The notes under the pieces: model-generated | Database searches by the model: none | What the model was told of the DNA's origin: nothing | The model's input: the letters and a program-made list of their open reading frames with translations, nothing else | NCBI RefSeq assembly: GCF_050320075.1 | Contig: NZ_CP190018.1 | Source: Escherichia coli | Lineage (GTDB): Bacteria > Pseudomonadota > Gammaproteobacteria > Enterobacterales > Enterobacteriaceae | Length of the DNA stretch: 64,000 nucleotides | Strand: one strand, 5' to 3' | Position numbers and translations under genes: made by a program | In this document: piece after piece, positions 3,115-50,000 of the stretch | Layout: every line of letters starts with the position of its first letter | Numbering within the stretch: the stretch's first letter is position 1

Positions 3115-4989
3115 TCAGGAAACCAGCAGCTGGTTCATACGACGAATAAACAGGTTCGGATCTTCCAGCGTGCCGCGTTCTGCCAGCAGCGCCTGATCCA
3201 GCAGCAGTTCTACCCACTCGCTGAACTTCGCTTCATCTTCAGTATCTGCCGCACGTTTCACCAGTACGTGATCCGGGTTCAGTTCAAAGATGTATTTCAC
3301 TTCTGGCACTTTCTGGCCCGCCGCAGCGAACAGTTTCGCCATCTGGGTGCTCATTTCGTCCGCATCGGTAGAGACAATCGCTGGCGTATCGGTCAGACGG
3401 TGAGTCAGACGGACATCTTTCACACGCTCGCCGAGCAGGGCTTTCACACGGTCGATGAACGGAGTCAGTGCTTTCTCCGCTTCTTTCGCGCTCTCATCAA
3501 CTTCGTCAGCCAGTTTTTCCAGCGACTCGTCAACTTTAGACACCGACTGGAACGGTTTACCGTCGAACTCAGTCAGATAGTTCATCATCCACTCATCGAT
3601 GCGGTCGGAAAGCAGCAGAACTTCGATGCCTTTCTTACGCAGCAGTTCCAGGTGCGGGCTGCTCTTCGCTGCCGCATAGCTGTCTGCGGTAATGTAGTAG
3701 ATTTTCTCCTGCCCTTCTTTCATGCGGGAAACGTAGTCTTCCAGAGACACGGTCTGCGCAGAAGAATCGGTATGGGTAGAAGCAAAACGCAGCAGTTTGG
3801 CGATCGCTTCCTGGTTAGCGAAATCTTCCGCCGGACCTTCTTTCAGTACCAGGCCAAACTGTTGCCAGAAGGTCTGGTATTTTTCCGCGTCGTCTTTCGC
3901 CAGTTTTTCCAGCATTTGCAGCACACGCTTGGTCAGCGCATTGCGCAGGTTACGCGTTACCGTGCTGTCCTGGAGGATTTCACGGGAAACGTTCAGCGGC
4001 AGATCGCTGGAGTCAATCAGACCACGCACGAAGCGCAGATAGTTCGGCATGAACTGTTCTGCGTCGTCCATGATGAACACACGCTGAACATACAGTTTCA
4101 GACCGTGTTTATGATCGCGGTTCCACATATCCCACGGTGCCTGAGACGGAATGTACAGCAGGCTGGTGTACTCCTGCTTACCTTCAACGCGGTTGTGGCT
4201 CCAAGTCAGCGGATCGTTAAAGTCGTGGGCGATGTGTTTGTAGAACTCTTTGTACTCTTCATCGGTGATTTCCGACTTGTTACGAGTCCACAGCGCCTGC
4301 GCTTTGTTGATTTTTTCCCAAGAGATAACGGTTTCGCCGTCTTTCTCTTCGCGTTTTTCGATCTCTACCGGCAGCGCGATATGGTCGGAGTATTTGCTGA
4401 TGATGGAACGCACGCGCCAGTCATCGAGGAACTCGTCTTCGCCTTCACGCAGATGCAGGGTGATTTCAGTACCACGATCTTCTTTGGTGATGTCGGCAAC
4501 GGTGTATTCACCTTCACCAGCCGATTCCCAGAAAACACCGTTTTCTGGTTTTTCGCCTGCCGCGCGAGTACGCACGGTCACTTTGTCGGCCACGATAAAC
4601 GCAGAGTAGAAACCAACACCAAACTGACCGATCAGCTGGCTGTCTTTCGCCTGGTCAGAACCCAGGGATTCGAGGAATGATTTGGTGCCGGATTTAGCGA
4701 TAGTCCCCAGATGGTCAATCACTTCGTCGCGGGTCATCCCTACGCCGTTATCGGAGATGGTCAGCGTACGCTTGTCTTTATCGAAAGAGACACGAACGCG
4801 CAGTTCGCCATCACCTTCGTACAGGTCCGGGTTAGAGAGCGCGCGGAAACGCAGCTTGTCCGCCGCATCGGAGGCGTTAGAGATAAGCTCACGCAGGAAG
4901 ATTTCTTTATTGGAATAGAGAGAATGGATCATCAGGTGCAGAAGCTGTTTCACTTCTGACTGAAAACCACGAGTTTCTTGTCCTTTCAT
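3115..4989 (-). CDS. htpG: Hsp90-family chaperone HtpG
   Basis: 624-aa ORF with GHKL ATPase N-terminus ([25 protein letters not shown]). Confidence 0.97.
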
Positions 4990-47117: not shown

Positions 47118-48593
47118 ATGTCCAGTCAATATTTACGTATTTTTCAACAGCCGCGTTCAGCCATATTGCTGATCCTGGGTTTTGCTTCCGGGCTACCGCT
47201 CGCCCTGACATCCGGCACCTTACAGGCCTGGATGACGGTCGAGAATATCGACCTCAAAACCATTGGTTTCTTCTCGCTGGTAGGCCAGGCTTACGTTTTT
47301 AAATTCCTCTGGTCACCGCTGATGGACCGCTACACGCCCCCATTTTTTGGGCGGCGGCGCGGTTGGCTGCTCGCCACGCAAATCCTGTTATTAGTCGCCA
47401 TTGCGGCGATGGGTTTTCTCGAACCTGGCACCCAACTCCGCTGGATGGCGGCACTGGCAGTGGTGATCGCTTTTTGCTCTGCCTCCCAGGATATTGTCTT
47501 CGATGCGTGGAAAACCGATGTGCTCCCGGCAGAAGAACGTGGCGCGGGCGCGGCAATCAGCGTGCTGGGTTACCGTTTAGGGATGCTGGTTTCCGGCGGC
47601 TTAGCCCTATGGCTGGCAGATAAATGGCTGGGCTGGCAGGGCATGTACTGGTTGATGGCGGCGCTGTTGATCCCCTGTATTATCGCGACGTTGCTTGCAC
47701 CAGAACCAACCGACACCATTCCTGTGCCAAAAACGCTGGAACAAGCGGTTGTTGCACCTCTGCGAGATTTCTTTGGTCGCAATAATGCCTGGCTTATTTT
47801 GCTTCTTATCGTGCTGTATAAGCTGGGCGACGCATTCGCCATGAGCCTGACAACCACGTTTTTGATTCGTGGCGTCGGGTTTGATGCGGGTGAAGTAGGC
47901 GTGGTTAACAAAACGCTTGGCTTACTGGCGACCATTGTTGGCGCATTGTACGGTGGGATTTTGATGCAGCGCCTGTCACTGTTCCGGGCGCTGCTAATTT
48001 TCGGTATTTTACAAGGTGCGTCTAACGCCGGTTACTGGCTGCTGTCGATTACTGATAAGCATCTCTACAGCATGGGCGCAGCCGTCTTTTTCGAAAACCT
48101 CTGTGGCGGGATGGGTACATCAGCCTTTGTCGCGCTGTTAATGACGCTGTGTAATAAGTCATTTTCCGCTACTCAATTTGCCCTGCTCTCAGCGCTTTCT
48201 GCTGTAGGGCGAGTTTATGTCGGCCCCGTGGCGGGTTGGTTTGTTGAAGCACACGGCTGGTCGACATTCTATCTGTTCTCCGTCGCCGCTGCCGTACCAG
48301 GGCTTATTTTGCTGCTGGTTTGCCGCCAGACGCTTGAATATACACGAGTAAATGACAACTTTATCTCCCGTACCGAATATCCTGCAGGTTATGCCTTTGC
48401 CATGTGGACACTGGCGGCGGGCGTCAGCCTGTTGGCCGTGTGGTTACTGCTGTTGACGATGGACGCGCTGGATTTGACGCACTTCTCTTTCCTGCCTGCT
48501 CTGCTGGAAGTCGGGGTTTTAGTCGCCCTTTCTGGCGTCGTGCTTGGTGGTTTACTGGATTATCTGGCGCTACGAAAAACGCATCTGACGTAA
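47118..48593 (+). CDS. ampG: Muropeptide (anhydromuropeptide) permease AmpG, MFS
   Basis: 491-aa polytopic MFS ORF directly after yajG. Confidence 0.95.
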   Translation: MSSQYLRIFQQPRSAILLILGFASGLPLALTSGTLQAWMTVENIDLKTIGFFSLVGQAYVFKFLWSPLMDRYTPPFFGRRRGWLLATQILLLVAIAAMGFLEPGTQLRWMAALAVVIAFCSASQDIVFDAWKTDVLPAEERGAGAAISVLGYRLGMLVSGGLALWLADKWLGWQGMYWLMAALLIPCIIATLLAPEPTDTIPVPKTLEQAVVAPLRDFFGRNNAWLILLLIVLYKLGDAFAMSLTTTFLIRGVGFDAGEVGVVNKTLGLLATIVGALYGGILMQRLSLFRALLIFGILQGASNAGYWLLSITDKHLYSMGAAVFFENLCGGMGTSAFVALLMTLCNKSFSATQFALLSALSAVGRVYVGPVAGWFVEAHGWSTFYLFSVAAAVPGLILLLVCRQTLEYTRVNDNFISRTEYPAGYAFAMWTLAAGVSLLAVWLLLLTMDALDLTHFSFLPALLEVGVLVALSGVVLGGLLDYLALRKTHLT

Positions 48594-49052
48594 TCTGTAA
48601 ATATTATTTAGCTGTAGTAATCACTCGCCGTAATTATTACGGCTAAATAAACATCAGCATCGCTTATTAATATTTGTTCTTTTGTGCGGCTTAGCGTCTG
48701 GAAATTATTGACGCCATTTATGAATTCTATTTTTCTTACACGATTCAGCTAATGAGTCTTTATTTTCTCACTACCCAGTTGTCACCTTAATGATAATTAT
48801 TTGTTAAATAATTGTTTTATTTCGCATTGGTTATACCAATTGCCCGCCCAGACTCCTTCTGCACTCCCCTTTTGTTATAACGCCCTTTTGCAACAGCTTC
48901 TTAAAATCAACCTGATATGTTTTGCAACATATGTGACCTGGAAGCCAAATCCAAGTAACAGGAATTTAATCATGTTTACAGTAATGTAACCTTCCCGTAA
49001 AATGCCCACACACTTTAAACGCCACCAGATCCCGTGGAATTGAGGTCGTTAA

Positions 49053-50000
<948 letters not shown>

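Follow-up and report, generated by a model that had tools for sequence, protein, structure and literature searches.

A conserved stem-loop between ampG and the cyo control region of Escherichia coli

The ampG-cyoA junction and the cyo control region

The window, that is, the whole 64-kb stretch of E. coli DNA that was analysed, carries the muropeptide permease gene ampG directly upstream of the co-directional cyoABCDE operon. The two are separated by a spacer of 459 bp (48594-49052), the cyoA ATG being placed at 49053 by the ORF list. The spacer of K-12 MG1655 has the same length and lies in the opposite orientation (451611-452069). Region 48560-49080, which comprises the spacer and about 30 nt of each flanking gene, is 100% identical to that of E. 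coli CFSAN061763, in which the flanking genes are annotated ampG and cyoA, and 5424 of 5426 complete E. coli genomes contain it, flanked by annotated ampG and cyoA. The G + C content of the spacer is 0.33-0.38, compared with about 0.53 in the flanking genes. An earlier note, made from the letters of the window, had described an AT-rich cyo control region that begins with nested palindromes after ampG; the spacer coordinates and the sequences that it quoted (GCCGTAATTATTACGGC, TTATTTAGC and GCTAAATAA) are exact and lie where it had placed them.

For comparative purposes, 80 Enterobacteriaceae loci were retrieved with AmpG as query. The ampG to cyoA gene order is found in most of these loci, with a spacer of about 450-480 bp. 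The features of the E. coli junction are listed in Table 1, in which negative positions are relative to the cyo transcription start, inferred at about 49010 from the ArcA site positions given in PMC3798270.

Table 1. Features of the ampG-cyoA junction (positions in the 64-kb window)
Feature	Position	Strand	Basis
ampG CDS (muropeptide permease), stop TAA at 48591-48593	47118-48593	+	ORF list; RefSeq annotation of an identical strain and of K-12
Conserved long stem-loop, 47 nt	48604-48650	+	Inverted repeat, MFE folds, covariation, covariance-model match of 59 bits
Perfect 8+1+8 palindrome GCCGTAAT-T-ATTACGGC, i.e. GCCGTAATTATTACGGC	48627-48643	.	Repeat finder; alternative pairing, E. coli-specific
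Three conserved blocks	AATATTTGTTcTTTTGTGCG 48671-48689, TGGAAATTATTG 48699-48710, CTTACACGATTCAGC 48734-48749	.	Conservation profile of 62 aligned spacers
ArcA site, four direct repeats (-231 to -189)	48779-48821	+	'cyoA3' of Park et al. 2013 (PMC3798270), identical at all but 2 nt
C-rich, G-poor tract, candidate rut-like Rho-loading region for ampG read-through RNA	48820-48917	+	Composition
PdhR box AATTGGTataACCAATg (-185 to -169)	48825-48841	-	Identical to the cyoA PdhR site of PMC7660256, Table 1
Two copies of TTTTGCAACA (48886-48895 and 48920-48929), then CRP-like half-site ATATGTGACCTGGAAGCCAAAT (48929-48950)	48886-48950	.	Repeat finder, motif scan
cyo core promoter: -35 TTTACA (48975-48980), -10 TAAAAT (48998-49003)	48972-49003	+	Promoter scan, 10/12 positions
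cyoA 5' UTR, about 43 nt, with ribosome-binding region	49010-49052	+	ArcA site positions and ORF; nearly invariant

Apart from the hairpin described below, this AT-rich spacer consists of the cyo control region already known (ArcA, PdhR, core promoter). This part of the earlier description holds, as both the PdhR box and the ArcA sites of the literature can be placed exactly in the spacer. A Fur-box-like sequence (48786-48804, 13/19 positions) overlaps the four-repeat ArcA site, and ATATGTGACCTGGAAGCCAAAT agrees with the CRP consensus at 14 of 22 positions. The PdhR box matches at 12 of 12 core positions and is invariant across genera. A three-repeat ArcA site (-38 to -7, 48972-49003), the reverse complement of which is identical to 'cyoA1' (PMC3798270), overlaps the core promoter, and promoter and site are together invariant across genera. 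ArcA ChIP-seq peaks of the same study map near 49030, 48886 and 48807, and none maps at the hairpin. The peak near 48886, 'cyoA2', for which Park et al. predicted no site, falls near the first copy of TTTTGCAACA. This sequence is an exact 10-nt direct repeat with a spacing of 34 nt, each copy lying within a TTGCAA-type palindrome; the second copy is conserved across genera together with TATGTGAC.

The alignment of 62 spacers displays the whole spacer as a mosaic of conserved blocks, one of them at 48920-48938. The three blocks within 48671-48749 lie at -339 to -261, between the hairpin and the ArcA site, and no regulator is assigned to them in the cyo literature examined. In several genera, the block AATATTTGTTcTTTTGTGCG pairs with variable upstream sequence to give a weak AU-rich hairpin followed by UUUUGUG. 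Compared with the published cyoABCDE control region (ArcA, PdhR, Fur, CRP, FNR), the remaining 400 bp or so of the spacer correspond to that region, whereas the hairpin (-406 to -360) and these blocks lie outside any site described in the papers examined.

Structure, conservation and spacing of the stem-loop

The repeat finder returned 17 pairs of inverted repeats in the 521 bp of the spacer region, the top one pairing 48604-48624 with 48630-48650 (21 nt, 86% complementary). The corresponding hairpin begins 10 nt past the ampG stop codon. Its left arm (48604-48621) pairs with its right arm (48633-48650) over 18 bp, including 2 G.U, and is topped by an apical helix of 2 bp (48623-48624 with 48630-48631) and a loop of 5 nt (48625-48629). 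The stem is AU-rich, with G-C in only 5 of the 20 pairs and G.U in 2 of the 20. This long hairpin is the MFE structure of the ampG-sense RNA, at -20 to -22 kcal/mol. Only one of 300 dinucleotide shuffles of the whole spacer contained a 60-nt segment as stable as the best one of the real spacer (-20.5 kcal/mol), and a 96-nt stretch folds at z = -3.8, none of 200 shuffles folding equally well. The symmetric element that had been noticed just 3' of ampG is therefore real and selected, considering this z-score and its conservation across genera.

The symmetry had been read as nested palindromes, and on this point the comparative data give another picture, namely one long stem-loop, the short palindrome being specific to E. 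coli. The outer arms TTATTTAGC and GCTAAATAA lie at 48604-48612 and 48642-48650, respectively; the left one is 14 nt away from the inner palindrome and the right one overlaps it by 2 nt. The short palindrome competes with the long hairpin for one right arm. The fold energy is -18.1 kcal/mol for the 18-bp stem of the long hairpin alone and about -20 kcal/mol for its MFE fold with the 2-bp apical helix, compared with -8.8 kcal/mol for the short perfect palindrome as RNA (6 bp, right arm shared) and -8.2 kcal/mol for a nested fold combining outer arms and inner palindrome. The nested fold was rejected on this comparison (-8.2 against -18 to -20 kcal/mol). The symmetric sequence after ampG is one conserved stem-loop of about 47 nt, and its geometry is not nested.

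A covariance model detected the hairpin after ampG in 55 of the 80 Enterobacteriaceae loci (56 sequences including the window) and in one copy only in the 64-kb window. The hairpin is confined to the ampG-cyoA junction, with one copy per locus, and is conserved with covariation over more than 20 genera; its consensus in most genera is TTATTTAGCCGTTGTAATCAC-N4-CGTAATTATAACGGCTAAATAA, with a stem of 18-22 bp and small internal loops. In 38 genera aligned without gaps, pairing was observed in 81% of cells, compared with 30-55% in controls with slid partners, and changes were found on both sides in 12 of 20 pairs; none of 500 shuffles matched the observed percentage of pairing or the covariation score, and one of 500 matched the 12 pairs. 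RNAalifold predicted no structure on this ungapped alignment, one-nucleotide bulges in the basal stem being the probable cause, and was replaced by an explicit structure, pair counts and the covariance model.

The restriction of the short palindrome to E. coli results from a compensatory swap (GTAGT/ATTAC in E. coli, GTTGT/ATAAC in other genera) together with one loop substitution, the other genera having TGCGTAAT...ATAACGGC in place of the E. coli palindrome. In E. coli OZ259269, the two changes T48615C and A48639G preserve the long stem and weaken the short palindrome. In a blastn search with 59 nt, the median number of places per E. coli genome was one, and identity was at least 99% in 4986 genomes. 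Exact-motif scans gave 52 matches in metagenomes, all 52 at the ampG-cyoA junction, and zero matches in viral contigs. A dispersed repeat (REP/BIME, ERIC, MITEs) or a phage origin was rejected on these grounds, that is, single copy, junction-bound metagenome matches and absence of viral ones.

Conservation is distributed unevenly along the hairpin. The apex CCGTTGTAATnAC-N5-GTAATTATAACGG is nearly unchanged, the base covaries and the loop is free. Majority identity is 0.91 for the apical 13 + 13 nt of the stem, 0.63 for the basal stem, where pairing is kept through covariation, and 0.44 for the 5-nt loop; the values for ampG codon positions 2 and 3 are 0.914 and 0.606, respectively. One G.U pair is held in 49 of 55 sequences. 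Over the alignment there are 102 G.U cells and 31 A.C cells, and of the two strands it is the ampG-sense RNA that folds more stably in 37 of 55 species. This asymmetry leans towards a structure of the sense-strand RNA; it is modest, the lineages are not independent, and the strand test is not decisive since a C.A mismatch beside the apical helix would be G.U on the other strand.

The stem is missing in Buttiauxella and Pseudescherichia, although ampG-cyoA adjacency is kept, and apex remnants survive in loci where the basal stem was lost. Rebuilt hairpins are observed in two genera, at about 4486-4552 of the respective loci. In Kluyvera (L014, L018, L021), a new downstream segment has become the partner of the ancestral left arm, and GTAATAATAACG, the ancestral right arm, lies in the loop; in Atlantibacter (L060, L061, L070), GTAAT forms the loop of a new CCGTG/CACGG helix within a longer stem. 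The two GTAAT motifs stay 13 nt apart throughout these rebuilt hairpins. Weak model matches (E = 0.02-0.09, both strands) were also obtained in Buttiauxella about 880 nt upstream of ampG (2117-2168 of L026 and L067); both loci are without the hairpin after ampG, and the matches are probably due to chance.

In 53 loci the hairpin lies 396-417 nt from the cyoA ATG (sd 6.6 nt), and its distance from the ampG stop varies from -4 to +271, three kinds of insertion being responsible for the long distances. Mobile or repetitive insertions all lie between the ampG stop and the hairpin, and, where the hairpin is kept, none was found on its cyoA side. Since its distance is fixed to cyoA but not to the ampG stop, the hairpin may belong to the cyo side, and the insulator role considered in the earlier note, or that of a boundary, would fit these spacing data. 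Regarding the insertions themselves, that of L013 (4477-4606) has the core AATCCCCAGGAGCTTACTCAAGTAAGTGACTGGGGTGAGC and is an ERIC-like element; a 270-bp element at 4477-4747 of L009 and L025 has the same left end; and L044 and L076 carry GC-rich REP-like palindromes at 4477-4525.

Search for transcript ends and known motifs at the hairpin

A classical terminator, which had been one of the functions suggested for the hairpin, is not supported. The terminator scan of 48400-49200 returned no terminator-like site. The E. coli tail after the stem, ACATCAGCAT, is without a U-tract, and the 10 nt after the stem contain a mean of 3.0 T over 55 species, many tails being runs of A; a few species have a moderately T-rich tail, such as Yokenella (ATTTATTTTT). 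In L059 and L068, two loci without cyoA downstream, a canonical terminator with GC stem and U-run follows ampG, and the hairpin is absent. The Term-seq lists available for two conditions from Adams et al. 2021 (PMC7815308) contain no transcript 3' end at the hairpin or at the 3' base of its stem, the entry at 451530 (inside cyoA) being followed by that at 452393 (inside ampG); as ampG is weakly expressed, this negative result weighs little. The TERMITe paper (PMC12207403), in which published Term-seq data were analysed, does not mention ampG in its supplement. An intrinsic terminator was rejected on the basis of tail composition and published 3'-end maps.

Regarding Rho, Adams et al. 2021 (PMC7815308) list no site in the spacer in the accessible part of their bicyclomycin table. 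The tract 48820-48917 has a C/G ratio of 2.3-2.8, which places it in the top 0.1-0.4% of 78-nt windows in the 64 kb. With 27 C and 9 G in 78 nt, it displays the most extreme C/G ratio of the window. Other genera have a comparable C-rich, G-poor bias (top 2% or so of 78-nt windows per locus), at varying positions and with poorly conserved sequence.

Several RNA features were noted within ampG itself. The part of the bicyclomycin table available from Adams et al. 2021 (PMC7815308) includes a Rho-sensitive read-through site at K-12 453334 (- strand), that is, at about 47329 in the window and about 210 nt into the ampG ORF, which suggests Rho-dependent attenuation inside the gene. In the available data of the same study, a strong ORF-internal RNA 3' end lies at 48270 (K-12 452393, - strand), and an abundant small RNA of less than 100 nt, 'ampG int', forms RIL-seq chimeras with CyaR. 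A gSELEX peak of RpoS also lies within ampG (PMC5493296). The 'ampG int' 3' end and the RpoS peak show that the 3' half of ampG yields stable RNA species.

The hairpin was then compared with known motifs and families. Consensus scans for PdhR, Fur, ArcA, CRP, FNR, IHF, Fis and CusR/HprR gave no match to any of these eight motifs in 48604-48650. A few other candidates were considered and set aside: NagC-like TTATTT/AAATAA arms, which are 29 nt apart for a NagC site of about 23 bp; a CpxR site of the GTAAA-N5-GTAAA type, as the period is 13 nt and not 10; the Tus Ter core, with 8 of 11 positions in other genera and fewer in E. coli; a TyrR box, for which the spacing is wrong; and an antisense promoter, for which other genera have a minus-strand TATAAT and no -35, the motif being absent in E. 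coli. The promoter scan likewise found no antisense promoter at the hairpin.

The PdhR SELEX site (PMC7660256) is the box at 48825-48841 and not the hairpin. Rfam 15 gave only chance-level matches in the window region (E above 5) and none in six orthologous loci, and RefSeq has no annotation under the hairpin. No description of the hairpin, be it as stem-loop, terminator, UTR element or RNase III site, was found in the literature searched. The cyo control region is already known, and the hairpin is an unannotated 3'-UTR or boundary stem-loop without U-tract and with an unusually conserved apex.

Possible roles of the stem-loop

We tentatively propose, while granting it somewhat less than an even chance, that the hairpin acts as an RNA stem-loop within the ampG 3' UTR, where it would define or protect the end of the transcript and form the boundary to the cyo control region. 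In this view it belongs to the 3' UTR of the yajG-ampG mRNA, and a polymerase that passes ampG would go on to synthesise some 400 nt of RNA that is untranslated, rich in C and poor in G. The transcript may be ended within this stretch by Rho termination or by RNase cleavage, and 3' exonucleases would trim it back to the stable stem; termination by Rho followed by trimming is plausible because the read-through RNA is untranslated and reaches a C/G ratio of 2.8. The stem, presumably active in its RNA form, could then protect the ampG mRNA or insulate cyo. It would constitute a border between the ampG transcription unit and a tightly length-constrained cyo control region placed under ArcA, PdhR and other promoter-level control. 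As cyo is derepressed 65-fold in an arcA mutant (PMC3798270), read-through from ampG would be costly. Other points in favour of the proposal are the stability of the long hairpin, its covariation and compensatory changes, its distribution, the strand bias, and the canonical terminator in the contrasting loci L059 and L068.

Among the closest known systems are the protective 3'-UTR stem-loops at the processed ends of Rho-dependent E. coli transcripts (Dar & Sorek 2018, PMC6061677), which likewise consist of a stable stem-loop shortly past the stop codon, without U-tract, with C-rich untranslated RNA downstream, at the end of a transcription unit. The ampG hairpin differs from them in that no 3' end is mapped at its base in the accessible data, that its apex does not vary across genera, a constraint beyond the needs of a purely structural barrier, and that it is in register with the downstream gene and not with ampG. 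The apical identity of 0.91 counts against a mere stability hairpin, as stability needs no such sequence constraint. The lack of the stem in Buttiauxella and Pseudescherichia, where ampG and cyoA are still adjacent, also speaks against the proposal.

An apex as conserved as ampG codon position 2 may be a regulator site, which the earlier note had also considered. In the corresponding explanation, the main alternative and possible though on the unlikely side, CCGTTGTAATnAC-N5-GTAATTATAACGG would be the site of a sequence-specific protein, either a far-upstream DNA operator or architectural protein or an RNA-binding protein, and the stem would be secondary. Conserved apical arms around a variable 5-nt centre (0.91 and 0.44) form the pattern of a dimer operator such as the PdhR box, which lies in the same regulator-dense spacer; the narrow range of distances to the cyoA ATG with all mobile insertions on the ampG side, the persistence of apex remnants after loss of the basal stem, and a G.U position that is never 'repaired' to G-C or A-U point in the same direction. 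However, the basal 8-9 bp covary with sequence turnover (identity 0.63), which a DNA operator would not need, and the element differs from such operators in its length of 47 bp, its covarying outer stem and its position 360-406 bp upstream of the transcription start. It has no consensus match to the eight motifs and no ChIP or SELEX peak in the papers examined, the three ArcA ChIP-seq peaks being at least 180 bp away, and half-site centres about 17 bp apart would be awkward for a simple helix-turn-helix dimer. A more specific version, which we hold to be unlikely, is that the apex with its retained G.U pair (49/55) is the recognition site of a sequence-specific factor, this being either an RNase or RNA-binding protein that targets the 3' UTR of ampG, or a DNA-binding or architectural protein that sets the upstream limit of a phased nucleoprotein complex of about 400 bp on the cyo promoter.

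Less probable still, the hairpin would serve for processing of the ampG 3' UTR by an endonuclease, for instance RNase III, which would set ampG decay or split ampG and cyo transcripts. The length of the stem (18-22 bp in most genera, interrupted by small internal loops) and a strand bias in favour of the sense RNA would suit such a site, and the lack of a stable 3' end at the stem in the available Term-seq tables is expected if cleavage destabilises the upstream RNA. Nevertheless, the AU-rich stem contains mismatches as well as G.U pairs, the literature search on ampG with RNase III returned nothing, and RNase III leaves the invariance of the apex unexplained. A Rho-independent terminator of the yajG-ampG operon is very improbable: the element is, like intrinsic terminators, a hairpin immediately downstream of a gene and between co-directional units, its fold is stable and the tail is moderately T-rich in a few species, but its lower stem is AU-rich, and a U-tract and a detected termination point are lacking (empty scan, mean of 3 T in 10 nt, no 3' end in the accessible Term-seq tables, no ampG in the PMC12207403 supplement), and loci without cyo downstream use a textbook terminator instead. 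Finally, short inverted repeats are common in AT-rich spacers (17 pairs in the 521 bp here) and mobile elements do insert at the ampG-cyoA junction, so that the palindromes could be thought a functionless feature of chance, or the decayed end of a mobile element. We consider this extremely improbable, as covariation over more than 20 genera, presence in 5424 of 5426 E. coli genomes, single copy number and the result of the shuffles (1/300) speak against it, and the conservation data effectively refute it.

The proposal of a 3'-UTR stem-loop at the transcript border concerns one of the most strongly oxygen-regulated operons of E. coli, which has a co-directional gene directly upstream and no classical terminator in between. 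Lying exactly at the upstream edge of a length-constrained control region, the hairpin is a simple, testable candidate for keeping read-through off a tightly repressed promoter, or for finishing the ampG message. If no factor binds the apex, it would be one more 3'-UTR stem-loop without U-tract, the remainder of the spacer being already in the literature. If the apex does bind a specific factor, a textbook locus would gain a regulator, and a shared boundary element would join a cell-wall recycling gene and the main aerobic oxidase.
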